A DNA stretch of 64,000 nt from an uncultured Actinomycetes bacterium. Lineage in GTDB: Bacteria > Actinomycetota > Thermoleophilia > Gaiellales > JAICJC01. Under the pieces are notes generated by a model that worked only from the letters and a program-made list of their open reading frames with translations, ran no database searches and was not told the DNA's origin. Of the stretch, positions 2,437-32,150 are shown in pieces (positions within the stretch are counted from its first letter, which is position 1; every line of letters begins with the position of its first letter). Where the stretch lies: positions 65,372-129,371 of the forward strand of contig CAVPWG010000002.1 in the NCBI GenBank assembly GCA_963709425.1. Direction: 5' to 3'. The translations under genes were made by a program, and so were the position numbers.

Positions 2437-3242
2437 TCCTCGTCTCCCTCGTCTTCGAACTGGCGGCCCGTGGCGGCCATGAACGCGCCCTCGAGGGTGT
2501 CGGCGCCGTAGGCGGCCTTGAGCGCCTCGGCCGTGTCGAGGCAGATGAGCGTGCCCTCGTGCAGGATGCCGATCCGGTCGGCCAGCGCCTCGGCCTCGGC
2601 CATGTCGTGGGTGCAGAGCAGGATCGTCGCGTCGTGCTGCTTGCGGATCGAGCGGACGAACTCCTGCACCTCGAGCTTCGAGCGCGGGTCGAGGCCGGTC
2701 GTCGGCTCGTCGAGCAGCAGCAGGACGGGCGCCGTGAGGAGCGCGCGGGCGAGCGCGATCTTCTGCTGCATCCCGCGCGACAGGTCCTCCATCGGCTCGC
2801 CGCGGCGCTCGGGCGGGAAGCCGACCCGCTCGAGGATGCGCGGGATCGCCTCGCGCGACTGACGCGGGGTCATCCCATAGAAACGGGCGGAGTAGCTCAG
2901 GTTCTCGGCCGGAGACATGCGCTTGAAGAACGACGCCTCGACCGACACGCGGTTCACCAGCCGCTGCACGGCACGCGGGCGGCGGAAGACGTCGTTTCCG
3001 AACACGGTCGCCGACCCGCCGTCGTGGAGGAGCAGCGTCGAGAGGAGCCGCACGAGCGTCGACTTCCCCGAGCCGTTCTGCCCCAGGATCGCCACGCACT
3101 CGCCCCGCGTGAGCGAGAACGTCACGCCGTGGAGCGCGGCCACACGGCGGCGGCGCCGGCGGTGGCGCAGGCCGCCGTTGCCGTCACGGCGGATGAACTC
3201 CTTGCGCAGGTCACGGACTTCGACAGCAAGCTGGGCGGACAC
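2433..3242 (-). CDS. ABC transporter ATP-binding protein (ABC-2/DrrA-like exporter)
   Basis: Walker A GQNGSGKST, signature LSRGMQQK and Walker B LLLLDEPTTGLD are present. The start is set at GTG 3242 (VSAQLAVEVRDLRKEF) and is uncertain. Confidence 0.85.
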   Translation of the reverse strand: MSAQLAVEVRDLRKEFIRRDGNGGLRHRRRRRRVAALHGVTFSLTRGECVAILGQNGSGKSTLVRLLSTLLLHDGGSATVFGNDVFRRPRAVQRLVNRVSVEASFFKRMSPAENLSYSARFYGMTPRQSREAIPRILERVGFPPERRGEPMEDLSRGMQQKIALARALLTAPVLLLLDEPTTGLDPRSKLEVQEFVRSIRKQHDATILLCTHDMAEAEALADRIGILHEGTLICLDTAEALKAAYGADTLEGAFMAATGRQFEDEGDEE

Positions 3243-15254: not shown

Positions 15255-16364
15255 TCAGACGGCGCTGCGAGGGTCGTGCACCCGCCGGTCGCCGCCGCCC
15301 TCGGGCGGAAGCGAGGAGTAGTCGGGCGCCGGGAAGCCGCTCTCGAGGTCGATCGCCCGCCCCTCCTTCGCCGAGCGGCCCGCCGCGAGCATGACCTCGA
15401 GCGCATGCAGCGAGTGCTCCGGCCGCATCACCGGCGCGACGCCGCGCTCGATGCACTCCACGAGGTGGTCGAGGCCGGCCGTCCACGACCACCCCGGCGC
15501 AGCCTCGGGGTGCACCTCCCACGTGCCGGCGGCGTTTCGCCAGAGCTCGAAGCCCTCCGGCGCCCAGTCGTCCCCGAGCATCTGCACGACACCGTCGGTG
15601 CCGTAGAGCTCGATAGCGGGCGAGCGGTAGCGCTGCATGGTGAAGCCGGTCGCCACCGATGCGAACCGGCTCTCGCCGAAGTCGAGCAGCAGGTGGGCGT
15701 TGTCGTCGCTCTGCACACGGATCGGGGCACCCTCGACGACGCGCTCGGGGATCGCCGTCCCCACCATCGCCACCACCCGGCGCACGGGGCCGATGAGGCC
15801 GCACAGGCTCGTGACGTTGTAGATGCCGAGATCGAAGAGCGCGCCGCCGCCCGGCTCGTAGTACCACCGCCCCCACCACGGCCCCGCCCAGCCGTACCGC
15901 GCCCGCGCCAGCACGACGCGGCCGACGTCGCCCGCCCCGACCCGGCGGTGGATCGCCCGGTAGGTGGGAGACAGGAGCACGGCCGGCGCGCAGACGACCA
16001 CCTGCCCGGATGCGCGGCCGGCCGCCGCGACGAGGGCACGGGCCTCGTCCATCGTCGTCGCCATCGGCTTCTCGACCAGCACGTGCCGGCCCGCCGCCAG
16101 TGCCGCGAGCGCCAGCCGGCCGTGCTCGAGCATGCTCGTCAGCACCAGCACCGCGTCGACCCGGTCGTGCTCGATGACGGCCTCGGCGCTCGCGACGGCC
16201 ACCGCCGCCCCTGTCGCGCGGTCGGCGGCGGCGCGCTTTTCGGGATCGGGGTCGTATGCGGCCGTGACCTCGACGCGCCCGGCGGCGGCGAGCCGCTCGA
16301 TCGCCGTGCGGTACGGCGTCCAGTAGACGCTCCCCAGACCGAGAATTCCGAGACGGACGGTCAC
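15255..16364 (-). CDS. Gfo/Idh/MocA-family oxidoreductase
   Basis: VRLGILGLGSVYW is a Rossmann-type start, followed by EKPMATT. GTG 16364 was chosen because the tracked start 16427 would overlap the divergent sthA start. Confidence 0.8.
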   Translation of the reverse strand: MTVRLGILGLGSVYWTPYRTAIERLAAAGRVEVTAAYDPDPEKRAAADRATGAAVAVASAEAVIEHDRVDAVLVLTSMLEHGRLALAALAAGRHVLVEKPMATTMDEARALVAAAGRASGQVVVCAPAVLLSPTYRAIHRRVGAGDVGRVVLARARYGWAGPWWGRWYYEPGGGALFDLGIYNVTSLCGLIGPVRRVVAMVGTAIPERVVEGAPIRVQSDDNAHLLLDFGESRFASVATGFTMQRYRSPAIELYGTDGVVQMLGDDWAPEGFELWRNAAGTWEVHPEAAPGWSWTAGLDHLVECIERGVAPVMRPEHSLHALEVMLAAGRSAKEGRAIDLESGFPAPDYSSLPPEGGGDRRVHDPRSAV

Positions 16365-16425
16365 CAGGCAACGATGATGATAAGAGACCCTCGGCGGTGG
16401 CGGGGATGGGTAGTCTCCGCTGAGC

Positions 16426-17841
16426 ATGGCCTACGACTTCGATCTGCTCGTGATCGGCTCGGGCCCGGCAGGTCAGAAGGCCGCGATCCAGGCGGCCAAG
16501 CTGCACCGCCGTGTCGCGATCGTCGAGCAGCAGCGCATGGTCGGGGGCGTGTGCATCAACTCGGGCACGATCCCCTCGAAGACGCTGCGCGAGGCGGTCA
16601 TGTACCTGACCGGGATGACGCAGCGGTCGATGTACGGCGACAGCTATCGCGTCAAGGACGACGTCACCATCTCGGATCTCTTCTGGCGCACACAGGCCGT
16701 CATCGAGCGCGAGGCCGACGTCGTCCGCGACCAACTCTCGCGAAACCACGTGCGCATCCTCACCGGCACGGGTCACTTCTCGGACGACCACACGGTCACG
16801 GTCTCGGGAGAGGACGGCGCCAGCCGCCAGGTGACGGCGGAGAAGATCGTGATCGCAGTCGGCACCCGGCCGGCGCGGCCGACGAGCGTCGAGTTCAACG
16901 AGCGCACCGTGCTCGACTCGGACGGGATCCTGCACCTCGAGAAGATCCCTGACGCGCTCCTGGTCGTCGGCGCCGGTGTGATCGGCATCGAGTACGCCTC
17001 GATGTTCGCGGCGCTCGGATCGCGGGTCACGGTCGTCGAGGTGCGGCCGCGGCTGCTCGACTTCTGCGACGCCGAGATCATCGAGGCGCTCCAGTACCAC
17101 CTGCGCGACCTGAACGTCGTCTTCCGGCTCTCAGAGGAGGTCGTCGGGGTCGACGAGCACGACGGCGGGACGATCACGCACCTGAAGAGCGGCAAACGGA
17201 TACTCGCCGACACGGTCCTCTACTCCGCCGGACGGCAGGGCGCGACCGACGCCCTCGACCTCGGAAACGTCGGGATCGAGGCGGACGCGCGCGGCCGGAT
17301 CAGCATCGACGAGCACTACCGCACGTCGGTCGAGCACATCTACGCGGTCGGCGACGTGATCGGCTTCCCGAGCCTGGCGGCGACCTCGATGGAGCAGGGC
17401 CGGCTCGCATCCGCGCACGCCTGCGGGCTCGACGTGAAGCCGATCTCCGCATCGCTGCCGATCGGCATCTACACGATCCCTGAGATCAGCTTCGTCGGCA
17501 GCACCGAGGAGCAGCTCACCCTGGAGCAGACGCCGTACGAGGTGGGGATCTCACGCTACCGCGAGCTGGCCCGCGGGGCGATCCTCGGCGACGCCTACGG
17601 CATGCTGAAGCTGCTCGTCTCGGCGGACGACCGCCGGCTCCTCGGCGTGCACGCCTTCGGGACGACCGCGACGGAGCTCGTGCACATCGGCCAGACGGTG
17701 ATGGGGTTCGGCGGCACGGTCGACTATCTCGTCGAGGCCGTCTTCAACTACCCGACGCTGGCCGAGGGCTACAAGGTCGCAGCGCTCGACGCGACGAACA
17801 AGCTGCGAGCGATCTCGTCGCTCTCCTCCTCGCCAACCTGA
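16426..17841 (+). CDS. sthA: Soluble pyridine nucleotide transhydrogenase
   Basis: [26 protein letters not shown]..., [19 protein letters not shown] and the C-terminal dimerisation domain resemble the SthA/UdhA pattern. Confidence 0.85.
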
Positions 17842-17897
17842 CGCAAAGAGAGCCAGGCCACAATCCGGGCGGGCCGCCGCGACGTACCCCCATCACC

Positions 17898-17920
17898 GGC
17901 GTCCCTCCTGCAAGGACGCC
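17898..17920 (+). terminator. Stem-loop downstream of sthA (GGCGTCC-N9-GGACGCC), no U tract
   Basis: A perfect 7-bp inverted repeat was read directly, 57 nt after the sthA stop. Confidence 0.3.
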
Positions 17921-18462
17921 TGCCCCGGGGCGGGGCGCGACCCCCTCGGACGTCCCGCTCCGGCGGCTGGCCACAGGCTCAATCGCGGTGCTCCCTGCGG
18001 CCGATCACAGCGCAGGTACCCCCGTGAACATGTCCGACCGAACAACCCTTGCCGAAGCCGGCCCCGGTCGCTGCCGCGTCGGTCGTGGACGTCGAACCGA
18101 CCGCGGCGAGTCAGGAGCTCCGGACGATCTCGAGCGGGGGTCAGTCGATCGCCGCCAGCGCGCCGCGGGCGTTGTCATCGACGACATCCGGCCGCGGTCG
18201 GCGAGCACCTCCGCACGATCAGGCACCCGGCACGAGTGCGGCGTGTGCTCGCTAATGTCGTAGTGCGCGTAGAGCGGCTGCATCGGTCTCGTGGCTTGAC
18301 CTAGACGTCGGTGGGCTTCCCGATGGGCTGGCTTGAGGTGACGACGTCGAGCTCGTGCCAGTCCCTGAGCTCACGGGCGACGGGATGCAGCACCTCGACT
18401 TGGGTTCGCTCGGACGTCTGCAAGCAACAATTGTGCAGCGCGCCCCGGTCGCGTGCAGGCCG

Positions 18463-18488
18463 AACGTTCTGGAAAGTTCTGGAACGTT
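18463..18488. promoter_or_regulatory. Inverted repeat AACGTTC-N12-GAACGTT containing two direct GTTCTGGAA copies 10 nt apart
   Basis: Read directly in the 790-bp gene-poor gap. It lies upstream (minus sense) of two small tandem ORFs. Confidence 0.35.
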
Positions 18489-18630
18489 TACGGGGACTGT
18501 TCGGATTCCGTGATCGCGCCCGGCGGGCCGTCCCGAGCGGCTAGGGTCGGTGGCCGAGGAGAGAGGCGGGTGGCGCACGGTTCGAAGACCGGCGTCCCTC
18601 GGAGTCGTCCAGGGAGGGAGGTCGAACGGC

Positions 18631-19470
18631 ATGGTGGGCATCCGAAGACGATTGGGGCGCTCGTGCGCGGTCGCGATCCTGACGGCCGCAGCCCTCGCGG
18701 TGCTGAGCCCGACAGTGGCGCTCGCGCGCCCGCACGGGCAGTTCCGGGTGAGCTGCCCCTACAGCCACTCGAAGTCCGACGATCCGATCGTCTACCCGGA
18801 CCAGCCGGGCGCGTCGCACCTGCACGACTTCTTCGGCAACAACTCGGTCGATGCGTTCTCGAATGAGTCGTCGCTCCGCGCCGGCACGACCACGTGTAGC
18901 ACCCCGGATGACCTGAGCGGCTACTGGGAGCCCGAGATGTACGTCAACGGCAAGCCCCGGCCGGCGCCGAAGATGACGATCTACTACGTGGGCTACGGCA
19001 ACACCGAGCCGATGCCCGCCGGCCTCCAGATGGTCGCAGGCGACTCGCACGCGACGCACCTGCAGTCGACTGCGGTCCTCCAGTGGACGTGCGGCGACGG
19101 CACGCCTAAGCAGACGAAGCCATACAACTGCAAGCCCTGGCTTAAGGTCGACCCGGGCGGGGTGACAGCGCTCGTCAAGTTCCCGACCTGCTGGGACGGC
19201 AACGGGCTCACGCGCGACCACGTCGCCTACACCGTGCGGGGCGGAAACTGCCCGGCGGGGTTCGGCCACTCGATCCCGCTGGTCAGGATGTTCCTGAAGA
19301 CGGGCATCGTGAACCCGCGGGATGCCAACAATCACGTCAGGATCGGCTTCTCGAGCGGAAAGCACTACACACTGCATGGCGACTTCTTCAGCGCCTGGGA
19401 TCAGGCCCGGATGAACTCGCTGACGCAGAACTGCATCAACGCCGGCAAGAACTGCGGCCGCATCACGTAG
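18631..19470 (+). CDS. Secreted DUF1996-family protein
   Basis: ATG 18631 follows GGGAGGGAGG. A signal peptide (AILTAAALAVLSPTVALA) precedes the SHLHDFFGN motif that I associate with DUF1996. Confidence 0.7.
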   Translation: MVGIRRRLGRSCAVAILTAAALAVLSPTVALARPHGQFRVSCPYSHSKSDDPIVYPDQPGASHLHDFFGNNSVDAFSNESSLRAGTTTCSTPDDLSGYWEPEMYVNGKPRPAPKMTIYYVGYGNTEPMPAGLQMVAGDSHATHLQSTAVLQWTCGDGTPKQTKPYNCKPWLKVDPGGVTALVKFPTCWDGNGLTRDHVAYTVRGGNCPAGFGHSIPLVRMFLKTGIVNPRDANNHVRIGFSSGKHYTLHGDFFSAWDQARMNSLTQNCINAGKNCGRIT

Positions 19471-19675
19471 GCGTCACCGGCCCGGATACAGGTGGCAGGC
19501 GACCTGCACGTCGCCGACCGGACGCAGGGCCGGGTCGATCGGATCGTGGAACTCGACGGCCGCGCCGTCGTCCGAAGGATCGACCGACCGGACGCCTGTC
19601 CAGAATGGTTCGACCTCTTTGACGAGCACCGGGCGGGAGATGTTGGCGGCGGAGTTCTCCGTCTCGCCGCCGCAG

Positions 19676-20269
19676 TCACACCTGGCCGCGACCCGTGGAT
19701 CGGGCAGTGGTCGGAAGATCCAACCCCTCGCGGCAGAGCTGGGCGGCGACGATCTCGCGGGCCTTGTAGATCCGCCACTTGACGTTCGCCAGGCTCGTCT
19801 CCAGGGCGTCGGCGATCTCCGCGTACGGGAGGCCGACGACGTCGCGCAGCAGCAGCGCCATCTTCAGATCCACGCTCAGCGCCCCGATCGCCCGCCAGAC
19901 GATCTCCATCTCCTCGATGGGGAGCGACTGCGGCGGTGCGGTGAGCTCCAGATACGCGTCGGCATCGAGCTCCAGCGAGCGGCCGCCCCGCCGCTCGCGT
20001 GCCCTCAGCTCATCGACCACCCGGTGCTTCGCGACCTGAAACAGCCACGTCGTGAACAGACAGCGACTGTCGAAGGTCGGCAGCGCCCGGTGGACGCGGA
20101 TGAAGACCTCCTGGCAGACATCCTCGGCCAACGCCCGGTCGCCCGCCAGCACCCGCACGACGTAGTTGTGAAGCGGCGCCTGGTACTGCCGCATGATGGC
20201 CGCAAACGCGTCGTCATCACCGCGCTGTGCGAGACGCAGCATGTCAGGGTCAGGTTGTGGGAGAGCCAC
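19676..20269 (-). CDS. ECF sigma factor
   Basis: Region 2 (EDVCQEVFIRVHRALPTFD, FTTWLFQVAKHRVVDELR) and region 4 (LLLRDVVGLPYAEIADALETSLANVKWRIYKAREI) are present. The start is GTG 20269 or ATG 20242. Confidence 0.85.
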   Translation of the reverse strand: MALPQPDPDMLRLAQRGDDDAFAAIMRQYQAPLHNYVVRVLAGDRALAEDVCQEVFIRVHRALPTFDSRCLFTTWLFQVAKHRVVDELRARERRGGRSLELDADAYLELTAPPQSLPIEEMEIVWRAIGALSVDLKMALLLRDVVGLPYAEIADALETSLANVKWRIYKAREIVAAQLCREGLDLPTTARSTGRGQV

Positions 20270-20363
20270 GATAGGTCACAGTCAAGAGTTCGTCACGAAC
20301 GTAACCCGGCACTCTGGCGATGCGCCGTTGGACCCGTCTTGGGCGCGGTTGTCGCGGTTGGGT

Positions 20364-21053
20364 CTATCCGACGATCCGCGCCGCCCGCCCGCGGCCGATG
20401 GTCGTGAGCTTGTCTCCCTGGACGATCAGCGCGGTGTCCTCGTCGAGCGCGTATCCCACATGTCCTTCTCCGAGATCGGCGATCGCTGCCCGGAGGCGCG
20501 GCGTCGTCTCCCACCCGTCGGCGTGGACCTCGACGGTGAACGGCACGAGCCCGAGCCCCGCGACGACCGCGACCTCCTCGAGATCCTCGCCTGCATGCTC
20601 GGGGCAGATCGGGCGCCCGTGGTGGCGCCACCCGCCGACGACGGCGTGCGTGGCGGCAATTGCCGCGCCGGCGGAGAACCCGGCGTAGGGCGCGCCGCGC
20701 TCGACGAGCCACCGGATCAGATCGTCGCGGACGGGAACCAGGGACGCCGCGTATTCGGGGGTGAGACCACCGCCCACCAGGAGCCCGTCCGCCTCGGCGA
20801 GGTCGTCGACGTTCATCTGGTCGCCGAGCCGGACGGGGACGACGACAGGCTCGACGCCGCCGGCCGACCCGAGCGCGCGGACGAAGCGGGCGCCGTACTC
20901 GTCGATGCCGTCGCCCTCGTCGAGAAGGACGATGGCGACCCGGGCCACACCGGAACGGCGAGCTGCAACGGCACTCGCCTCGCGCAGGAATGCGTCGTAG
21001 ATCGCAGGCTGGGCATGTTCGTCCCAGCCCCCGCCGATCAGCGTGATGTGCAC
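20364..21053 (-). CDS. Peptidase S51 / cyanophycinase-like type-1 glutamine-amidotransferase-fold protein
   Basis: VHITLIGGGW..., LLVGGGLT and AGFSAGAAIA (nucleophile-elbow-like) are present. The start is set at GTG 21053. Confidence 0.6.
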   Translation of the reverse strand: MHITLIGGGWDEHAQPAIYDAFLREASAVAARRSGVARVAIVLLDEGDGIDEYGARFVRALGSAGGVEPVVVPVRLGDQMNVDDLAEADGLLVGGGLTPEYAASLVPVRDDLIRWLVERGAPYAGFSAGAAIAATHAVVGGWRHHGRPICPEHAGEDLEEVAVVAGLGLVPFTVEVHADGWETTPRLRAAIADLGEGHVGYALDEDTALIVQGDKLTTIGRGRAARIVG

Positions 21054-22264: not shown

Positions 22265-22864
22265 TCTCGCAACAACGACGGGCTCACGCTCTTCTCGTAT
22301 GAGATTCTCGGCCTCGTCGGACGAGGCGGTGCCGCCGCCCACGACCTGCTTCGCATGGCGCGCCGCGGCCGCATCCTGGCGTGGGCGGGGGAGAGCCAGT
22401 ACTACGTCGAGCCCAAACGGCTGGCCGCGCTCGGATATCTGTCAGCCCGCAAGGAGCCGGGCCGGACACGAGAGCGAACTGTGTACTCGCTCACCGACAA
22501 GGGGCTTCGAGCCCTCCAGGAGCACGCCCGCACGCCGGCCACCATCGTCCCCTTCAAGAGCGACGCGCTGCTTCGCCTGCTCATCTGCGATCTCGTCGGA
22601 GAGCCAGTCACCCGGGCGAGCATCGAGGCGCTCCGAAACGAGATCGCGGACCTCCGGCGACGCATCGACGACACCGACGCCTCCGCGCGAGAGCTGCCGC
22701 ACCGATCGACGTACCTCATGATGACGAACGACTTCCTCCGAGGGCTGATCGACCTGCACGCCGAGCTCATCGAGCGCGTCGAGCGCGAGCTGGCGGCTGA
22801 CGAGCTCGACACTGAGAACGCTTCGGCGCCGGTCCGCGGCGTCGGAGATCATACGAGCGGCTGA
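22253..22864 (+). CDS. PadR-family transcriptional regulator
   Basis: A winged-helix pattern (FSYEILGLV...YYVEPKRLAALGYLSAR...RTVYSLTDKGLRAL) is followed by a long C-terminal helical domain. Confidence 0.8.
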   Translation: MEHSSRNNDGLTLFSYEILGLVGRGGAAAHDLLRMARRGRILAWAGESQYYVEPKRLAALGYLSARKEPGRTRERTVYSLTDKGLRALQEHARTPATIVPFKSDALLRLLICDLVGEPVTRASIEALRNEIADLRRRIDDTDASARELPHRSTYLMMTNDFLRGLIDLHAELIERVERELAADELDTENASAPVRGVGDHTSG

Positions 22865-22887
22865 CGGCCGCGGGCCGGCTTTGGCGA

Positions 22888-22930
22888 TGGGCCGTGCTGG
22901 GATCGAACCAGCGACCTTGGGATTAAAGTC
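22888..22930 (-). repeat. Partial copy of the tRNA-Lys 3' half (att-like direct repeat, distal copy)
   Basis: Positions 22888-22927 are identical over 40 nt to 31439-31478 (discriminator, acceptor 3' strand, T arm, variable loop, 3' anticodon stem). The upstream sequence lacks a D arm, so this is not a functional tRNA. Confidence 0.8.
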
Positions 22931-23124
22931 GCCGCCACGCCGTGACGGCCCGTACCGGCTGGTGCCGGGAAGTCCAGGATTAGCAGGGCTTTCCGGCACT
23001 CGCCCTGTGCGCGCCGTGACGGCTCGTGTCGCCCTGTTTCGGCTCGTGCGTTTGCAATCCGTTAGCGGCGCAGCCTCAGATCGGATGATCGGAGCGCACT
23101 TGCGCACCCACCGCCGCGAAGACG

Positions 23125-23328
23125 TCAGGCGTCGCCCGTGCCGAGCTCGCGTTCGAGCTCCTCGACACCGGCGCCGAGCCTTACCATCTCCTGCTTCACG
23201 TTCGCTATTGACTCCGCTTTCGCCGTGTCTGCCTGGTCTGCCGGGTGGAGGTCGGCGACCATCATTTGGGGCCGGTCGAAGGTCGCGCGCATCTCGGCGA
23301 GCCGGGCGCGTTCGGGCTCGGAGGGCAC
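23125..23328 (-). CDS. Small hypothetical protein (67 aa, helical, acidic)
   Basis: The tracked ORF has mostly G/C third positions. There is no recognisable motif. Confidence 0.35.
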   Translation of the reverse strand: MPSEPERARLAEMRATFDRPQMMVADLHPADQADTAKAESIANVKQEMVRLGAGVEELERELGTGDA

Positions 23329-23761
23329 CCGGGGGAATCTAGCCGCGCTGGCACCGGCGGCGGCTTAGCTGGCGATCGCCGCCGGGTTCGCTGCACAGCC
23401 GGCGGCCAGTCTCGGAGCAGGCGATTGGAGAGGCGGCACTAACGGCGTTTGGCGTAGCGCGCTACTCCGGTCGTGTCGAAGGCCACGCACGCGTCGCCGC
23501 CGACCCCACAAGCAAGCCGGGGGTCGACGCCCCGCGGGGCGTAGGAGTTCACTTGAAGGTGACCTCGTACCCCCTGCGAACCCCACGGGTACGGCAGCGT
23601 GGGCGGATTTCGGCGGTGGATCGGGTCCATCATCTGGAGCGCGAAAAGACAGCTCAGTGTGGAACGGCAGCTCCCTCCCGGCTGACGGAGCCAGCGCGGT
23701 GTGTGCTACATCTCGGTTCGCAGGTCGTGCGGCTTTCGGAGCTCTTCGGTGGGAGGATGCG

Positions 23762-26101
23762 ATGGAGGCAACAGGGCGTCGGGCGTTTTTGATCTCGAAG
23801 GGGTGGATCCAGGCTGCGATCCTCGTCGTGGTGACGGGGTTCTTCGTGCTCGGGCTGCTGGCGTACCGCACCTACATGGAGCAGCCGCCGGTACCCGGGA
23901 AGGTTGTTGATCCTGCGGGCAGGGTGGTGTTCACGGGGTCTGACGTTCACGCCGGACAGGAGGTGTTCCTGCAGAACGGGTTGATGGAGTACGGTTCGGT
24001 GTTCGGTCACGGCGCCTACCTTGGGCCTGACTACACGGCCGACTATCTCCGTCGCTCGGCGAGTCTCGTGAGGCGCTCGTACGGCGGCGCGGGGTCGGAT
24101 TCCGCCTCCCGCCGCACCGTCGCGGACTTCCGCACCAACCGGTACGAGTCACAGTCCGGCACGCTGACGTTCACGAACGCCCAGGCGGACGCGTTCAGGC
24201 GCCTCGTTTCATACTACGGCGGCTTCTTTTCCGATTCCACCAGCGAGCATGGGCTTGTGCCGAAGGCGATTACCGACCGGCGGGAGGTGCGTCAGCTGAC
24301 CGCGTTCTTCGCCTGGACGGCGTGGGCGGCATCGGCCGGGCGGCCCGGTCACAACTACTCGTTCACGAACAACTGGCCGCCAGAGCCGCGGGTTGGAAAC
24401 AGGCCTACCGCCAACGTGATCGTGTGGTCGGTGCTGTCGTTGATCGCGCTGCTCGGTGGCATCGGCGTCTTGTTTGCGGTCTTTGGCCGGTGGGGGCAGC
24501 GACTCGGCTGGCACGGCCGCGAGCAGGCGACGCTGGTGTTCCGCTCGCCAGGCGACGTGGCGCTCACCCCGGCGCAGCGCGCCACCGCCTGGTTCTTCTT
24601 CGTCATGGCCGCGCTGTTCCTGATTCAGACGCTGGCCGGGGCGGCGAGCCAGCATTACCGCGCCGAAATCGACAACTTCTTCGGCTACGACCTCGCACGG
24701 GTGTTCCCGTACAACCTGATGCGGACCTGGCACGTGCAGCTCGCCATCTTCTGGGTCGCGACCTCGTTCGTGGCGGCCGGCATCTTCCTGGCCCCGATGA
24801 TCGCACGACGCGAGCCCAAGCACCAGGGCAAGCTCGCGTTCGCGCTGCTCGGCGCGCTGGCCGTGGTCGTCTTCGGCATGCTGATCGGCTCTTACCTGGG
24901 CGTGCACGGCGTGCTGACCGACGCCGCCTCGAACTGGTTTGGGCTGCAGGGCTTCGAGTACCTCGACCTCGCACGGCTGTGGCAAGTGCTGCTCTCGGTC
25001 GGCCTGTTCGGCTGGGTCTTCATGCTCTGGCGGGTCCTGCGTCGGCGGCTGGCGTCGGAGCACCCTGGGAACATGCCGTGGCTGTTCTTCCTCGCCGCCT
25101 GCGCGATCCCCGCCTTTTACGCCGTGGGCCTGCTCGCCCGTAGCGAAGACACGTTCACCACCACCGAGTTCTGGCGCTTCTGGGTCGTGCACCTGTGGGT
25201 CGAGGACTTCCTCGAGCTGTTCACGACCGTGATGGTGGCGTACATGTTCGTGCTGCTTGGGGTGGTCCGCGAGCGGGTCGCCCTGACGGTGGTGTTCCTC
25301 GACATCATCCTGTACTCGGTGGGCGGGGTGATCGGCACCATGCACCACCTCTACTTCTCCGGCGAGCCGGCAGAGCACATGGCGCTGGGCGCGTTCTTCT
25401 CCGCCGCCGAGGTCATCCCGCTCACGTTCCTGACCGTCGAGGCGTGGTCGTTTCTCCAGCTCGGCGCCGCCCAACAGGCGCGGTCGCCAACGCCGTTCCC
25501 GCACCGCTGGGCGGTGATGTTCCTCGTGTCGGTCGGGTTCTGGAACTTCCTCGGCGCCGGCATCTTCGGCTTCTTGATCAACCTGCCGATCGTGTCCTAC
25601 TACGAGATCGGCACCGCGCTCACAGCCAACCACGGACACGCGGCCATGATGGGCGTCTACGGGATGCTCGCGCTCGGCCTGGCGCTGTTCTGCCTGCGCT
25701 ACCTGATCCCGGCCGAGCGCTGGCCCGAGCGCTGGGCGCGCATCTCGTTCTGGTCGACGAACATCGGGCTGGCCTGGATGTGCTTCGCCACCCTCCTACC
25801 ACTCGGCATCATCCAGCTGTACAAGTCGGTCAACTCCGGATATTTCGAAGCGCGCGAGGCCAAGTTCCTCACCAACGACACAAACGCGCTCCTCGAGTGG
25901 CTACGCCTCCCGGGTGACCTCCTGTTCATCATCGGCGGTGCCGTCCCCACCCTCTACATCGCCTGGATCGGCATCCGACACACCGTCAACCGGGTCACCC
26001 TCGACGAACCCGAGGGCGGCATCCTCTTCACCGACATCATGCTCCCACCAAGCGCCACTGGGGCGGGCGGCGATGAGGCGACCGCCGCCCGGCTTATATG
26101 A
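23762..26101 (+). CDS. norZ: Quinol-dependent nitric oxide reductase (qNOR, single-subunit NorB/NorZ type)
   Basis: ATG 23762 follows GGGAGG. An N-terminal TM plus periplasmic extension (GHGAYLGPDYTADYL) precedes a heme-copper-oxidase core with VVHLWVEDFLELF, GTMHHLYFSG and NHGHAAMMGVYG. Confidence 0.85.
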   Translation: MEATGRRAFLISKGWIQAAILVVVTGFFVLGLLAYRTYMEQPPVPGKVVDPAGRVVFTGSDVHAGQEVFLQNGLMEYGSVFGHGAYLGPDYTADYLRRSASLVRRSYGGAGSDSASRRTVADFRTNRYESQSGTLTFTNAQADAFRRLVSYYGGFFSDSTSEHGLVPKAITDRREVRQLTAFFAWTAWAASAGRPGHNYSFTNNWPPEPRVGNRPTANVIVWSVLSLIALLGGIGVLFAVFGRWGQRLGWHGREQATLVFRSPGDVALTPAQRATAWFFFVMAALFLIQTLAGAASQHYRAEIDNFFGYDLARVFPYNLMRTWHVQLAIFWVATSFVAAGIFLAPMIARREPKHQGKLAFALLGALAVVVFGMLIGSYLGVHGVLTDAASNWFGLQGFEYLDLARLWQVLLSVGLFGWVFMLWRVLRRRLASEHPGNMPWLFFLAACAIPAFYAVGLLARSEDTFTTTEFWRFWVVHLWVEDFLELFTTVMVAYMFVLLGVVRERVALTVVFLDIILYSVGGVIGTMHHLYFSGEPAEHMALGAFFSAAEVIPLTFLTVEAWSFLQLGAAQQARSPTPFPHRWAVMFLVSVGFWNFLGAGIFGFLINLPIVSYYEIGTALTANHGHAAMMGVYGMLALGLALFCLRYLIPAERWPERWARISFWSTNIGLAWMCFATLLPLGIIQLYKSVNSGYFEAREAKFLTNDTNALLEWLRLPGDLLFIIGGAVPTLYIAWIGIRHTVNRVTLDEPEGGILFTDIMLPPSATGAGGDEATAARLI

Positions 26102-26730
26102 GCGCCGAGGTCATACTGGCGGCCGGCTACGCCGCGGCCCTGATCGCCGGCGCCTTCTCGCTCGAATGGCTGTCAGCACACACCCACCGCCGCTCGCTTC
26201 GGTACCGCACCGCCGGGTTCACCTACCACGAGACGCTTGACCACTGGAGCTGCCCCGAGGGCCAACATCTATGGCCGCACGAGTTCGACTACGACCGCCG
26301 ACTAGTGCGCTACCGGGCCAAAGCACACATCTGCAACGCCTGCGCCCGCAAACCCGACTGCACCGACTCCAACCACGGCCGCGAGGTCGTCCGCCCGCTC
26401 GACCCGTGGCCCCACTCCGAGGCTGGCCGGTTCCACCGCGTGATCTGCCTGCTCCTCGTCGCCCTCGCGGCGCTCATCCTCCTCATCGAAACCGCACGCC
26501 ACCACCACACGGCTGAGCTCGGGCTGCTCACGACGCTGCTGCTCGCCGCCGCCGCCGCCGCGCGCTGGCTGGAACGCGACCTCGCCGCCCATCCCACCAC
26601 CTTCCCGCACCCATCTGCATCTCATGGCCTACGCCTGGCAACCACCGCAACCGACCGTCGACACGCCAACAGCCAGCCGCCATCGCAGACCGGCCCAGAT
26701 ACCTCACCGCAAAGACCACCCAGCGCCTGA
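26098..26730 (+). CDS. Membrane protein with a Cys/His-rich cytoplasmic module, translationally coupled to qNOR
   Basis: ATGA overlap with the norZ stop. It has an N-terminal TM, then FTYHETLDHWSCPEGQHLW...YRAKAHICNACARKPDCTDSNHGREVVR, then two TM segments. Confidence 0.6.
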   Translation: MSAEVILAAGYAAALIAGAFSLEWLSAHTHRRSLRYRTAGFTYHETLDHWSCPEGQHLWPHEFDYDRRLVRYRAKAHICNACARKPDCTDSNHGREVVRPLDPWPHSEAGRFHRVICLLLVALAALILLIETARHHHTAELGLLTTLLLAAAAAARWLERDLAAHPTTFPHPSASHGLRLATTATDRRHANSQPPSQTGPDTSPQRPPSA

Positions 26731-27019
26731 CACTGCCACCGGTCGTGCGGCCGAACTCGTCGCGGCCACCGCCCACGAAGGGCGGAGTGGGGTGTGGAGT
26801 TGGAGGCGCGAATCGGCGAGGCATCGTCGCGCTCGTCGCGACGACGTGCGTGTCCGGCGTGGGTCGGCTCAGCGGCGGCACTGGCCTTAACACCGACGCC
26901 ACGGCTCGTGCAGCCCGATCCGTGCACTTTCGGGCCAACCGCCGGTACGTGACGTAGAGATTGACTCCAGAGGGACGAGTGGCCAAAGAGGCGGCCTATC
27001 GATTGGGTATCGTCCTCCC

Positions 27020-27340
27020 ATGCCGGAACTCCCAGACGAGGGCGCCGCGCCCGACGAACTGCTGGCACCGGCCGCGTACGATCGTCCGCCCGACGCGGCG
27101 CCGCCCGAGTCGGGCCGGCACGAGCGCCCGCAGGGTATGTTGCCGGGCCGTGAGCGACGCCGCAGCGTGATCGAGCGCGGCTTCGTGCGCGTCATCGCCA
27201 CGGGTGGGATCATCGGGATTGGCACCCTCCTGGGCGCCGTCCTCGTCAGCCAGGCCGTTGAGGGGTGGATCGTCGGGCTCGCCGTCGGTATGACGTCGGT
27301 CGTTCTGGCCGCCCTGCTCTGGTCGTCGCGACAGCTCTAA
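27020..27340 (+). CDS. Small membrane protein (106 aa, two C-terminal TM segments)
   Basis: Third positions are G/C-rich throughout. The hydrophobic tail reads VIATGGIIGIGTLLGAVLV...IVGLAVGMTSVVLAALLW. Confidence 0.5.
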   Translation: MPELPDEGAAPDELLAPAAYDRPPDAAPPESGRHERPQGMLPGRERRRSVIERGFVRVIATGGIIGIGTLLGAVLVSQAVEGWIVGLAVGMTSVVLAALLWSSRQL

Positions 27341-28783
27341 GCCGCGCGCTCGGGCCATGCGAAGGAGGCGAGAGGGACGCGGCGGCCGCGGGCCGGAAGG
27401 TCGTCGGGCGCCTCGCCGGCCCACAGGATGAGGGTGCGGGCGGCGATGTCGCGGCCGCGGCGGAGCATGATCGCGTCGATTCCAGCGGCGAGCTGCTGCC
27501 GTCGATCCTGTGTGGAGAGGTCGGGCCAGAGGGCGGGCAGCCCGGCGGCGATCCGGAGACCGGCCGAGGCCGACACGGCCATGGCGGTGTCCAGCGCCTG
27601 CTGCGCGGCCTTTTGCTTTTGCCGGCGGCTGGTCAGGCCGGCGGCATAGGCGTCGCGGCCGACCTCGCGGACGCTCACCGCCTCGATCCACGCCGCTAAC
27701 TCGGCCTCGGTTTCGGCGAGCGCGTGCCGCGCATGCTCGGTCGCGGCGCGGTCGGCAGCCGGGCGAGTGAGGGCTCCATCCGGTCCGAGCTCCGCCAAGA
27801 ACGCCGCGACGACGTGCGGCTCAACAACGTGTGCGAGGACGCTCGTCGGCGTGGGGCAGTGCCCCGCGGCATGCTCGCCCCGGCACCGGTACTGGCGCAG
27901 GTTCCCCCCGCGGCTGGAGATCGTGTCGGGCTTCATGACGTATCTGCAGCCGGCGCATCGGAGAAGGCCGGCCAAGAGCGCGCCGCTGGGCGAGCGGAGC
28001 GGCGAGACGGTTCGCCGGGTCAGCTGCGCCGCACGCCATTCTGCCTTCGAGACCAGCGCGGGATGGGCGCCGTCCTTGTGGTGCTGCCCGGAACGTGCCT
28101 GGCCGGTGTACACGGGATTCTCGATCACGTTCCGCACGGCACCTGTCGTCCACGCCGTGCCGCCGTATGGCCCGACGATCCCGGCGGCTTCGAGGATGCC
28201 GGCGAGCTCTTTCCACGACGCGCCTGCCGCTCGCCGCCGGAACACGTCGGCGATCGTAGGCGCGGCGCACGTCGACTGGCTCCAGCCGGCCGTCGGCCCC
28301 CCGGCGATAGCCCGTCGGTAGCCGGCTGGCGATGTGGACGCCCCGGTTGACGGCCGACTCCTGTGCCCTCGCCCAGGTGTCGCGGATCCGGTCAACCTCG
28401 AGCTGCGCTAGCGCCAGGATCATGTGAAGAGCGAACTTGCCCGTCGGCGTGCCGGTGTCGAACTTCTCCTCGACGCTGACCAACCGGCCGCCAGCGTCGT
28501 CGACGCGCCTGATGGCCGCGGCAGCCGCGGCCATGCTGGGTGCGATGCGATCGAGCTTCGCCACGACGATGCCGTCGGTCTTGCTCGCCTCGATCCGCGC
28601 TAGGGCCCGCTCGAGTCCTGGCCGTGGTGCCTTGTTGCCGGCCTCGTCCAGGTCGTCGTGCCACGCCGCTATGTGGTGGCCGTGGAGGGCGCAGAACGCC
28701 TCGATCTCGTCTCTCTGCGCCCCGGCGGAGACGAAGTTCTTGCTGCTCCTATGGCTGACTCTGATGTAGCCGTCGACGTTCAT
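27337..28783 (-). pseudogene. Large serine recombinase, reading frame broken once (pseudogene or assembly indel)
   Basis: The N-terminal resolvase domain (MNVDGYIRVSHRSS..., frame of ORF 27821..28876) runs to ...PTGYRRGADGRLEPVD. The recombinase, Zn-ribbon and coiled-coil part (TIADVFRRRAAGASWKELAGIL..., LLRCAGCRY...YRCRGEHAAGHC) continues in the frame of ORF 27337..28395. The junction is near 28255-28276. Confidence 0.75.
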
Positions 28784-28800
28784 AGGAGTGCCGTCCGCGT

Positions 28801-28959
28801 CTACAGGCGCTCGTCCTCGCGAAGCACGCTGGCCACGTCTGCCATCACATGGAGCAGGGGTGCACAGAGGGGGCACTCCTCGGGCGTCGCGCCGGAGTGG
28901 CCGTTGCGCTCGGTGGGCAACAGGGGGGCGGTAATGGGGGGCTCCATGCGATCTCTCAT
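28801..28959 (-). CDS. Untracked mini-ORF (52 aa, CxxC) 17 nt upstream of the serine recombinase
   Basis: Hand translation gives MRDRMEPPITAPLLPTERNGHSGATPEECPLCAPLLHVMADVASVLREDERL. Third positions are mostly G/C, and AAGGA lies just upstream. It is below the 60-aa track cutoff. Confidence 0.4.
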   Translation of the reverse strand: MRDRMEPPITAPLLPTERNGHSGATPEECPLCAPLLHVMADVASVLREDERL

Positions 28960-28999
28960 TCCTTGGGCTCTTGGGTTCGTCGGTCGTTGGTGCCGCGCA

Positions 29000-29023
29000 C
29001 CCCTGGCCGGCTTCGGCCAGGGG
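29000..29023 (-). terminator. Perfect 9-bp stem-loop (CCCCTGGCC-N6-GGCCAGGGG) 15 nt after the stop of the 29039..29233 gene
   Basis: Read directly. There is no U tract. Confidence 0.4.
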
Positions 29024-29038
29024 CTCGCGGATGCTGCT

Positions 29039-29233
29039 CTAGCGTGAGGTGGTCAGCCCGAGGAGATTCTCCACATGGAGCATCTCGCCGCGGAAGCTGT
29101 TGTAGTCCTGCTCGCTGGCCGCCTTGAAGGCGGGGTCAGCACCGTCGCGCACGATGCGGAAACGATCGGTGGCGCTCTTCAGTGCCTGCGCAACGTTCAT
29201 CTCAGCAGTGCGGGTGGGGATGGAAGTCGTCAT
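29039..29233 (-). CDS. Small hypothetical protein (64 aa)
   Basis: A GAGAGGAA ribosome-binding site lies upstream. The third-position bias looks coding, and a stem-loop follows the stop. Confidence 0.5.
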   Translation of the reverse strand: MTTSIPTRTAEMNVAQALKSATDRFRIVRDGADPAFKAASEQDYNSFRGEMLHVENLLGLTTSR

Positions 29234-29541
29234 GCTGTTCCTCTCAGTTCAGGCTCTCTTCGGCCTGGTATGTCCACCGTATCACGACTATGGCCTATAT
29301 GCAATACGATAGATACCGTCAAAGGGCATAATCCGCACCGATCGGGCGCCCTAGGTCTCGAACTCGATAGACAGTTCGATGTGCCAGCCCATTATTCTGG
29401 CGATCGTAGAACCACCGTTGGCGGTGCAGGTAGCGACGGCGCGACCCTTGGCAGGTTCCACCAGCGTTGACCCGAAGCGCGGCGAGATCCTGCTCGTCGC
29501 AGGCGATCGACCACCCGCCAACGACTAGACCGCGACTGGCC

Positions 29542-29993
29542 CTACCGGGCCACTGACTCAGCTGCCTTCTTGAGGTGGCCGAGCCATGCCATCAGCGACC
29601 CGTCGAGCAGGGTTTGCATCCCGGCCGCGTCGGCTTCGACCGGCTCTCCTGCGAATGACTCGTTGGTCTCCACGTGGGCGCCGCCGGGTGTCTCACGGAA
29701 GATCCATTCGTGGACGCCGGTGATCCCGCCGGCGGTACCTCCCAGAGCACGCGGGATCGTTCGGACAGGTTGTAGATCGTGGAAGTTACGGGGAATCCGT
29801 AGCTCGACCAGTCGAACGAGGCTCCTTCCTCGAACGCGCCATCGAGGTGCGCCTCGGTGACGTCGGTCTGCCAGATCGGCCACGTGTTGACCTCAACGTG
29901 GAGTCGCCACACGACGTCCAGCGGCGCCGCTATCTCGGTCTCGTGGTGAGAAACCACGGGTGCGTCACGATCGATGGCCGTGGGCGTTGTCAT
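29542..29993 (-). pseudogene. SRPBCC-superfamily protein (polyketide cyclase/AHSA1-like), one frameshift
   Basis: The N-terminal part (APLDVVWRLHVEVNTWPIWQTDV...TSTIYNLSERSRVLW) is in the frame of ORF 29592..29993. The C-terminal part (GGTAGGITGVHEWIFRETPGGAHVETNESFAG...) is in the frame of ORF 29542..29883. The junction is at the CCC/GGG run 29741-29743. Confidence 0.7.
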
Positions 29994-31179
29994 GGCTCTC
30001 CTCCCGCGCGCTGGTCCGGGCTACGCGCCAGAGCCTAGCCCGTCCGATCAGTTCTCCGGCACGGATTCAGCCGCATGACACACCCGCCGATGCATCGAGC
30101 CTCGGCGTCGACCATCCGGGGCGCGGATTTCGAGTACCCCCCGCTTCTCCTCTTCGCCGGCGGGCGCGGTCTTACCGGGACGCCCGAGACGTTGCGGCGC
30201 TGAGGGCGGGCCGAGGCGGGGGAGGCCGCCGTGGCGGACGGCCTCCGCACCCCTTCGACTCCTGCCTCGCGGGAGGAACCCTTGGCAGTCTGCCCCGAGT
30301 CGTGAGCGACGATATCCGCCCGCAACGACAACGCGATGGCCGCTATCCATCTTTTCACGAGCGCTCGCCGGTCAGGCGGGACATGCGCGAGCGGTTCGCT
30401 AACCTGAAGGGGTGCCCGCGCCGGGCCCTACCGCGCCCGCCGGGCTAGCCGCGTCTCGTCCTACACCCACGGCTCGGCTCCCCAAGTCGACGCCTCCCCC
30501 TAGGACGGGGCGCGGTGAAACAGTGGGGGCCGCCCGGTCGGTACCTAACCAGCAAGACGCGTTCTACGCGGGCCGGTGGCAACTCGTGCAGTTCCCGTCC
30601 CGGTCGAACCTGCCGCCGCACCAATCGCATCGTTCGACCCGGCTGGCCTTCGGCCGTGGGAGGAGCGTGGGCAGCACCACCGCTGTCAGCGTCACCGGCA
30701 CCCTGCGAATGCTACCTAACGGCGTCCGCACTCAGGCGTGGATGTAATCCTCGCGTTCTTGACCGCTCGCCGGACGTCGGCCTACGCGCCCTCGGCTGAC
30801 TGTCTATCCGCGGATGGCTCGAGCTCGTCGGCGTTCCATCACCGCGTCGATCGCCCAATGCTCGCGCTTCCGCCACTCGCCGCCTAGTTCTCGGCAGAGC
30901 CACCGCCCCGACTCGGAGCAGGCGACGGTCTCGAGGCCGGCAGAGCACCGGCCTGGGAGCGGCTGGTGGAGACGACCGCAGAGGGAGCACCGACTGCGTG
31001 GGTCGAGAGCCGTCACGGCAGGGCGGAGAGCTCGGCGTTCACGGCCCGACGTGCCTCCTTGAGGTGCGGCAGCATTTCGTTGCACCGGTCGAGACGCGTC
31101 GAGGTCGTCTGGCACCTGAATCTCGATGGTTCGCACGGTTCGGTCATCCTCGGTGTGTGCCGTATGTGCGCCACCCCGT

Positions 31180-31213
31180 AAAAAACCCCTGCAAGCGTTC
31201 TCCTCGAGCGGGG
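31180..31213 (-). terminator. Intrinsic-terminator-like hairpin followed by T6 (minus sense)
   Basis: The minus strand reads CCCCGC-N15-GC(A)GGGG-TTTTTT. This is one of very few T tracts in the window. Confidence 0.45.
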
Positions 31214-31278
31214 CCGCTTGGTTGAGCACAAAACGGCGTAGCCGTGCGCCTTGACACCCCTTGTCGCTTCGGTTCCAG

Positions 31279-31303
31279 TGCTGAAGGTGGGAGTCGAACC
31301 CGC
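31279..31303 (-). other. tRNA-like 3' fragment (T arm GCGGGTTCGACTCCCAC plus CTTCAGC-A), no matching 5' acceptor
   Basis: A canonical GGTTCGACTCC T loop was read on the minus strand. I could not fold a complete cloverleaf or a tRNA-Sec. Confidence 0.35.
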
Positions 31304-31438
31304 ACGGCCCGCGCGCGACCAATGAGTCGGCAGCGGTCGCTGCATCGTTCGCCGGGCACCTCGTACACGTCCCGTACACATTAGGCCACGAACAATCGAT
31401 TCGATGAGCAGGTTCCGCTCAACCAAGCCGTTCTAGAG

Positions 31439-31482
31439 TGGGCCGTGCTGGGATCGAACCAGCGACCTTGGGATTAAAAGTC
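31439..31482 (-). repeat. Proximal copy of the att-like direct repeat (3' half of tRNA-Lys)
   Basis: It matches 22888-22930: 40 nt are identical, then a one-A length difference, then GTC. Confidence 0.8.
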
Positions 31483-31511
31483 CCCTGCTCTACCAGCTGA
31501 GCTAACGGCCC
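31439..31511 (-). tRNA. tRNA-Lys (anticodon TTT)
   Basis: Hand-folded as GGGCCGT TA GCTC AGCTGGTA GAGC A GGGGA CTTTTAA TCCCA AGGTC GCTGG TTCGATC CCAGC ACGGCCC A. CCA is not encoded. Confidence 0.9.
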
Positions 31512-31546
31512 CAGGGAGCCAAGTGTAGGTGGTAGCTTGGGCGCCC

Positions 31547-32150
31547 ATGCTGCGCATCGGCCATCGCGGCGCAGCCGCTCTCGCGCCCGAGAACACCCTC
31601 GCCGCAATGCGCGCTGCGATCGGTGCTGGCGTGGACATGGTCGAGTTCGACGTGGCGCCCGGACTCGTCGTGGGCCACGACGGCGGCCCACCCCGGTCCC
31701 GGTCTCGCGTCATTCCTCGCCGAACTCGCAGAGATCGCCCCGCCCGAGCTCGGCTTCCTGGTCGATCTGAAGGGGTGCGGCTACGAGCGCGACACGCTCG
31801 CGGCGTGCGCGGTCGCCGGCCTCGCGGACCGGTGCGTGTTCTCGACCGGCGAGCTGCGCTCACTCATCGCGCTGAACGACGACGCCCGGACGAGTGCCAC
31901 GATCACGCCGGGCCGGTTCTGGGTGCCCTGGGGCAAGGTCACACCCGCCGACGTCCATGCCCGGTCCGGCGCCCGCGACGCAACGCTGCGACATGACATC
32001 GTCACCGCCGAGACCGTCACCGCCGTGCACGAGCGTGGCGGCCGGGTGCTCGCCTGGACCGTGAACACGCGCGACGGCATCGAGCGCATGCGCGCGCTCG
32101 GCTGCGACGGCGTCATCACCGACGACCCGCGACTGTTCCACGAGGAGTGA
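31547..32150 (+). pseudogene. Glycerophosphodiester phosphodiesterase (GDPD family), one frameshift
   Basis: MLRIGHRGAAALAPENTLAAMRAAIGAGVDMVEFDV...VVGHD is in one frame. PGLASFLAELAEI...LVDLKG...LAWTVNTRDGIERMRALGCDGVITDDP is in the +1 frame. The junction is at the CCCC run 31691-31694. Confidence 0.7.

Follow-up and report, generated by a model that had tools for sequence, protein, structure and literature searches.

The DNA discussed here is a window of 64,000 nt (the whole stretch that was analysed; positions 65,372 to 129,371 of contig CAVPWG010000002.1) from an uncultured soil actinobacterium of the Gaiellales, in which an intact tRNA-Lys(TTT) gene and a displaced copy of its 3′ part enclose a segment that carries norZ, the gene encoding a quinol-type nitric-oxide reductase (qNOR). 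Our best explanation, which we hold with moderate confidence, is that this segment (~22931–31437) is a mosaic, integrase-less relic of site-specific integration at a tRNA-Lys(TTT) hotspot. A preliminary description of the stretch, made from the sequence letters alone, had already proposed an integrated island at this place. That proposal is supported by the repeat, by the geometry relative to the tRNA gene and by a junction that varies between strains, but the class of the recombinase on board, the supposedly broken open reading frames (ORFs) and the codon usage of norZ fail as arguments for it, and the shift in composition is small.

Positions 22888–22927 and 31439–31478 are identical over 40 nt, as was found both by direct reading of the two sites and with a repeat finder, and the spacing from copy to copy is 8551 nt, leaving an enclosed segment of ~8.5 kb. 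A 28-nt core of this repeat has exactly two occurrences in the window and none in 100 shuffles. The proximal copy lies in a tRNA-Lys(TTT) gene on the minus strand (31438–31511), which was called intact by ARAGORN as one of four tRNA genes in the window and matched the Rfam tRNA family with 70 bits. The distal copy (22888–22930, minus strand) is a displaced, attR-like 3′ fragment of the same gene; neither ARAGORN nor Rfam detected a tRNA at 22888, and the fragment is not part of a second tRNA gene. Beyond the 40 perfect nucleotides the fragment reads AAA-GTC and the tRNA gene AAAAGTC. All of this bears out what the preliminary description had claimed for the repeat, the one-A length difference followed by GTC, the intact minus-strand gene and the distal copy that is no tRNA. 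Because the fragment has four A’s in L091, an independent assembly of the same locus, and matches tRNA-Lys across 45 nt in the sister strain represented by contig L082, we put the identity block at ~44 nt; the real block is most likely 44 nt long, corresponding to positions 30–73 of the tRNA, and the one-A difference in the window may be a homopolymer error. The attL-like copy would then comprise the 3′ 44 nt of tRNA-Lys (31439–31482, minus strand). In tRNA numbering the block starts at position 30, within the 5′ strand of the anticodon stem, and extends across the anticodon loop, the T arm and the acceptor strand to the discriminator.

The fragment is oriented like the tRNA gene, is situated on the 3′ side of it and extends to the discriminator; it lies 23 nt past the stop codon of a PadR ORF that ends at 22864. 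In the islands compiled with Islander (Hudson, Lau and Williams, 2015; PMC4383910) a regenerated tRNA gene and a displaced fragment mark the two ends, and an island has to encode a tyrosine integrase (PF00589); a 3′ fragment was present in 3760 out of 3919 of those islands, and 2083 had an anticodon-centred site. The geometry reported in the preliminary description, i.e., an intact tRNA gene with a 3′ fragment displaced to that side of it, matches this signature. A full tRNA gene and a co-oriented cognate fragment flank the segment, the length of 8551 nt falls within the 2–200 kb of Islander islands, and the fragment lies outside any full tRNA gene or protein domain (no Pfam domain in any frame between 22865 and 23700). 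The segment resembles these tyrosine-integrase islands also in the anticodon (“A”) sublocation of its site, in the carriage of a cargo gene such as norZ and in its mildly deviant composition. A repeat that spans the anticodon stem to the discriminator represents the usual pattern of tyrosine integrases.

The inner edge of the fragment could be compared with that of sister strains. The near-identical contigs derive from one ENA sample series (ERZ250395xx), and four close contigs were reached through homologs of the PadR protein. In L081 and L082, which come from independent samples, the sequence follows that of the window with 99% and 97% identity, respectively, as far as 22927; unrelated DNA continues past this position, so that the homology stops exactly at the inner edge of the fragment. 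The sister-strain contigs are on record as ERZ25039584 contig_29424 and ERZ25039585 contig_21987. This edge is, therefore, a true recombination junction, and the locus behaves as a strain-variable hotspot, with the same displaced fragment and different DNA behind it in sister strains. The alternative DNAs of L081 and L082 have 5.1 kb in common and then diverge from each other; they are of high GC content and contain genes for AMP-binding, Peripla_BP_6, adenylate/guanylate cyclase (with AAA_16), TetR and MFS proteins. The two types of DNA are joined to the same fragment 1 nt apart, after 44 nt in the norZ type and after 45 nt in the L082 type, and just inside the block the symmetry of the anticodon stem is partly kept (norZ type GGCGA, L082 type CCGGA, compared with GGGGA). 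The junctions resemble what would be expected of attR sites from two elements whose attP cores are related.

The same junctions bear on an explanation that does without site-specific integration, in which the fragment would be the leftover of a partial duplication or a rearrangement of tRNA-Lys, and homologous or illegitimate recombination would have exchanged the DNA at a plastic locus. This would be in agreement with the replacement DNA of L081 and L082, which resembles core metabolism and has a genome-typical GC content, and with the lack of integrase or mobility genes apart from a nested serine-recombinase module (see below). However, chance must then have yielded a co-oriented fragment on the 3′ side that extends from the anticodon stem to the exact discriminator end, and two DNAs joined 1 nt apart (at 44 and 45 nt) are a hallmark of attR.

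An artefact, in which the 44-nt repeat caused two strain haplotypes or loci to be mis-joined, also has to be considered for error-prone long-read metagenome assemblies, particularly since one of the contigs (L083) is chimeric and the two junction types occur side by side in one project. Yet L091 is collinear with the window from 36188 to 17074, including the tRNA gene, the fragment and everything between them, and L083 confirmed the stretch with PadR, fragment and norZ as far as the point where it becomes chimeric. Three independent assemblies, thus, agree on the path from PadR through the fragment to norZ, and two of them (the window and L091) on its continuation to tRNA-Lys and the GDPD gene, and 44 nt is far shorter than long reads. 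Since L091 reproduces it completely and L083 partly, and both were assembled from other samples, the arrangement is not an assembly artefact, and we attach practically no weight to that explanation.

A number of observations weigh against the interpretation as a relic of integration. The first concerns the enzyme, the gene for which (int) usually lies in the stretch next to the tRNA. With Pfam no match to PF00589 was obtained for the ORFs of the segment, and a six-frame Pfam search of both arms (28880–31437 and 22865–23700) revealed neither PF00589 nor a remnant of it. PHROGs gave no integrase match in the six frames of 29950–31437, and PF00589 was equally lacking from 20 further long ORFs of the window (Pfam) and from the precomputed calls covering 12–36 kb. 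A tyrosine integrase was, thus, not detected inside the candidate island, and the segment would fail the integrase filter of Islander because none is on board; it also differs from Islander islands in having no recognisable xis, replication or transfer genes, and no empty site was seen.

An island without its own integrase could still be mobile if a tyrosine integrase whose gene lies at another place in the genome excised and integrated it in trans, with ongoing exchange at tRNA-Lys. The two att copies show no mismatch across at least 40 nt, candidate arm-type motifs are intact at both ends (see below), and different DNA abuts the same fragment in strains that are 99% identical, which points to recent turnover. 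Selection keeps the sequence of a tRNA conserved anyway, however, and no integrase was found among the tested genes of the 64-kb window, nor a recognisable excisionase; furthermore, the 40-nt att sequence has no exact match in IMG/VR. We regard trans-mobilisation as improbable and consider that the segment, as a relic, is probably no longer self-mobile.

Further points against integration came from the relatives. The preliminary description had suggested that related genomes be compared for an empty site, in which tRNA-Lys abuts PadR; this was done, and no such site was found in any of the PadR and agmatinase relatives examined. The PadR relatives (L084–L087; 72–77% identity) keep the methyltransferase–PadR pair and have neither tRNA-Lys nor the fragment nearby. 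The agmatinase relatives (L002–L006) likewise have no empty site, and the search for agmatinase homologs returned no near-identical long contig. Among genome contigs only distant relatives were found with the agmatinase, and look-ups of the exact PadR and methyltransferase proteins of the window were blank. L002 has tRNA-Lys directly upstream of agmatinase, but no PadR. The closest GTDB genome is a Gaiellales metagenome-assembled genome (L001) with an agmatinase of 89% amino acid identity, the contig of which ends 950 nt upstream, without tRNA-Lys. It shows 85% nucleotide identity across GDPD, agmatinase and tRNA-Glu. In L001 1–350, compared with window 31438–31546, a protein-coding gene ends 10 nt before GDPD, and no tRNA-Lys is present next to GDPD. 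Because another gene occupies the place of tRNA-Lys in L001, the position of this tRNA gene is itself not conserved among close relatives.

The flank of the tRNA gene is equally difficult to reconcile with a single integration. The ~100 nt beside the tRNA on the island side (31340–31437) align with the same position in L002 (9710–9810), and this stretch holds two GTACAC boxes ~11 nt apart; the agmatinase of L002 is only 72% identical. The L002-like flank thus lies on the island side and not on the PadR side, and this weighs against a single integration because the simple model would place it on the PadR side, unless a related element is present in L002. It would fit both the arm-type sites of such an element and a native flank. 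In L002, ~1.8 kb of weakly coding DNA of lower GC content adjoins tRNA-Lys. Another point of this kind is that the alternative DNA of L081 and L082 consists, across the 10 kb that are visible, of ordinary metabolic genes without the look of a mobile element. The explanation by rearrangement gains from the L002-like flank adjoining the intact tRNA gene, and also from the poorly conserved synteny near tRNA-Lys and PadR even in the closest relatives. Set against the exactness of the fragment and of the two joints, this leaves it, in our judgement, unlikely, albeit an explanation to be reckoned with.

The compositional deviation, the last of these unfavourable points, is small. The window has a GC content of ~70%, and the preliminary description had claimed that the enclosed DNA differs from its surroundings. 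The deviation is real, as the segment is among the lowest 4% of all 8.5-kb stretches (mean 0.701) and its tetranucleotide correlation of 0.981 is the lowest in the window, but the actual difference is slight (GC 0.679 versus 0.706). The AT-richer patch noted at 29240–29400 is indeed present but proved to be the leader of the serine-recombinase module, and the excess of A/T-ending codons claimed for norZ was not observed: its GC content at third codon positions (GC3) of 0.88 falls within the 0.80–0.94 of its neighbours. The broken ORFs that had been listed do not hold up as a sign of decay either. The near-identical contigs differ from the window chiefly by indels of one base, with six over 9 kb in the case of L081; the core GDPD gene in the right flank (31547–32150) is split over two frames; the SRPBCC gene of the segment, which is frameshifted in the window, is intact at 150 amino acids in L091; and the recombinase gene is in one frame in L091 at the site of its frameshift in the window. 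Long-read assembly indels, thus, best explain the broken ORFs, and pseudogene calls in the window are unreliable because the assembly carries such errors.

The recombinase gene that had been named in support of the island is present, but it encodes a large serine recombinase and belongs to a separate module of 2.33 kb (27003–29332, minus strand) that recurs elsewhere with the same ends and without a tRNA. The gene itself (28783 to 27337, minus strand) has one frameshift near 28280, and the three domains of a large serine recombinase were identified across the two frames: Resolvase (PF00239, 8.9e-25), Recombinase (PF07508, 2e-14) and Zn_ribbon_recom (PF13408, 3.9e-9). Intact homologs of 481 amino acids from short-read data (JGI) are 90–91% identical over the full length; in L091 the gene has breaks of its own further downstream. 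No close relative of the recombinase was found in IMG/VR. The module further comprises a membrane ORF of 106 amino acids (27020–27340, plus strand), convergent with the recombinase gene, a 48-amino-acid CPLC ORF (28801–28947, minus strand), a 64-amino-acid ORF (29039–29233, minus strand) that is present only sometimes in homologous modules, and the AT-richer leader (29244–29332) upstream of the latter two ORFs and the recombinase gene.

Copies of 2.1–2.33 kb with ~90% nucleotide identity to 27003–29332 were found in L088 (9722–11780), L175 (977–3302), L176 (1–2085) and L092 (9732–11656). In L088, L089, L092 and L093 the module is bordered by LPG_synthase/ANTAR on the left and SBP/LexA on the right; in L175 by LPG_synthase on the left and a 109-amino-acid ORF and Fic on the right; L176, a short contig that begins inside the module, has the same right flank as L175; and in one JGI contig, for which no DNA was available, the left and right neighbours differ from those of the L088 and L175 groups. 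No tRNA-Lys or fragment occurs within 10 kb of any of these copies. The right end is sharp, with ...GACGATACCCAA common to all contexts and followed by three unrelated sequences, the left end begins with ATTATGYCC, and the same ends recur in at least three unrelated contexts on the right and two on the left. Joining them (...GACGATACCCAA + ATTATGCCC...) gives a GATACC-N18-GGTATC dyad, a candidate attP of the module. The module shares with phiC31/Bxb1-type prophages, SCCmec CcrAB and XisF elements a three-domain recombinase within a unit with sharp ends in several contexts, and its recombinase shows sub-threshold NCBIfam similarity to XisF and CcrA/B; it differs from such elements in being far smaller (2.33 kb), in having three tiny ORFs as its only cargo and in being unrelated to the tRNA repeat. 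We tentatively suggest that it may be an autonomous, minimal integrative element that occupies varied chromosomal sites in Gaiellales-like soil actinobacteria and that here landed in, and perhaps helped to reshuffle, an integrase-less tRNA-Lys island. Contig L083 (ERZ25039536 contig_63951) switches in the middle of the recombinase gene from a GC content of 0.73 to one of ~0.40, with Bacteroidota-like glycosidase ORFs (16149–20471), and represents a chimeric assembly; the breakpoint, at window position 28380, was considered as a recombination point in the recombinase gene and rejected, as the contig is chimeric with low-GC Bacteroidota-like DNA.

These data also bear on the idea that the whole 8.5-kb unit was inserted by the recombinase that it carries. 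In favour of this, the segment has no other recombinase, the protein has all three domains, and the frame in L091 and the 481-amino-acid homologs indicate that its gene is probably undamaged in the population. However, the attL and attR of serine integrases share just a few identical bases, versus the 44-nt identity observed here, and the gene is located 2.1 and 4.1 kb from the segment ends instead of at an att site. Because the module recurs at ~90% identity and with the same ends in at least three other contexts, none with tRNA-Lys or the fragment nearby, we conclude that the serine recombinase did not make the 44-nt repeat. According to Hudson, Lau and Williams (2015; PMC4383910), moreover, no serine integrase is known to use a tRNA gene as its target, so that this one would be the first. 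Integration of the whole segment by this enzyme, the hallmarks of which were not found for the segment as a unit, is in our opinion very improbable.

Returning to the relic of site-specific integration, we infer that a tyrosine integrase made the repeat and was later lost. In this scenario, one or more elements with an attP holding a tRNA-like block of ~44 nt would have recombined with the tRNA-Lys gene, catalysed by a heterobivalent tyrosine integrase. The crossover would probably have taken place in the anticodon loop, because the block spans from there to the 3′ end. The outcome would be an intact tRNA gene proximally and the original 3′ part displaced next to PadR. The integrase and any genes for transfer or replication would since have been lost, and what remains would be the operon of norZ and its 210-amino-acid partner, the SRPBCC gene, ~2.2 kb of gene-free arm DNA and the separately acquired 2.33-kb module.

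Actinomycete integrative and conjugative elements (AICEs) such as pSAM2 and SLP1 integrate into the 3′ part of tRNA genes with an identity of 40-plus nt, and their core genes are int, xis, Rep, an FtsK/SpoIIIE-like Tra, Spd, Pra/Kor and Nudix. The segment resembles them in its host phylum (Actinomycetota), its small size (~9 kb), the use of a tRNA 3′ part and the identity segment of 40-plus nt. However, none of the AICE core genes was detected in the Pfam scans, and the combination of an integrase, a replication initiator and an FtsK/SpoIIIE-type transfer protein was not found with Pfam among the sizeable ORFs and in six frames of both arms. The segment would, thus, at most be a gutted remnant of an AICE.

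The norZ gene (23657–26101, plus strand) has the domain make-up of a qNOR, as one ORF of 814 amino acids is predicted to contain both the NorB cytochrome-c-like domain (PF22085, 2.4e-52; residues 80–242) and the COX1 domain (PF00115, 8.1e-55; residues 309–754). It is directly followed at its 3′ side by an ORF for a Cys-rich membrane protein of 210 amino acids (26098–26730, plus strand), which would be translationally coupled to norZ because its start overlaps the norZ stop codon (ATGA). Among 80 metagenome loci with a NorZ of 65–85% identity, ~75 have the 210-amino-acid ORF directly after norZ, and no tRNA-Lys, PadR, serine recombinase or SRPBCC gene was found near norZ in the 80 loci. The nucleotide homology of these loci to the window is limited to norZ and the 210-amino-acid ORF; because it is confined to these two genes and none of the other features of the island occur nearby, the norZ operon forms a third, independent module of the mosaic. 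The 210-amino-acid ORF was also considered as a transposase, which was rejected, as its matches to IS1182 were sub-threshold and it is a conserved partner of norZ in ~75 loci. The IS1182 matches reflect a shared Cys-rich region and not a transposase, and the protein is probably an uncharacterised accessory protein of qNOR. The remaining cargo gene encodes an SRPBCC/polyketide-cyclase-like protein of 150 amino acids with a weak match to PF10604 (29542–29993, minus strand); its frameshift in the window lies at a G-run (~29740).

The distal arm (22931–23656) contains no recognisable gene, and its six-frame Pfam search was blank; an ORF of 67 amino acids (23125–23328, minus strand) matches no family and is conserved at 98.5% identity in L091. 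The tRNA-proximal arm of 1.44 kb (29994–31437) shows no coding signal (its GC3 periodicity is weak), no match to Pfam, PHROGs or Rfam, and no match in collections of plasmids or phages. Rfam, a tandem-repeat finder and a promoter/terminator scan yielded nothing informative in the non-coding arms. A direct repeat of 49 nt with 80% identity (23376–23424 and 30877–30925) lies ~450–560 nt inside each end of the segment. The near-palindrome GCCGTSACGGC occurs five times in the window versus 0.31 expected: at 22939–22949 and 23013–23023, within two direct copies of CGCCGTGACGGC in the distal arm (22938–22949 and 23012–23023), at 31009–31019 in the proximal arm as GCCGTCACGGC, and also at 3180 and 6315. 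The two copies in the distal arm are 11 and 85 nt away from the fragment, and the one in the proximal arm is ~420 nt away from the tRNA gene; at least two of the three are present at homologous positions in L091, and the motif is absent from the L081/L082 type. These clusters, the 49-nt repeat and the ~100 nt conserved in L002 weakly suggest candidate arm-type binding sites of a family of related elements.

In more general terms, the segment illustrates that a tRNA-fragment footprint can outlast its integrase and that an enclosed recombinase need not be the maker of the footprint. “Broken ORFs” in long-read metagenome assemblies, likewise, do not count as evidence that genes are decaying. If any part of the segment deserves more study, it may be the nested serine-recombinase mini-module. 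For the organism itself, norZ resides in a strain-variable, tRNA-anchored segment of an uncultured, Gaiellales-like soil actinobacterium. The practical point is modest: close strains from the same sample series do not carry norZ at this locus and may, therefore, differ in the detoxification of nitric oxide or the production of nitrous oxide.

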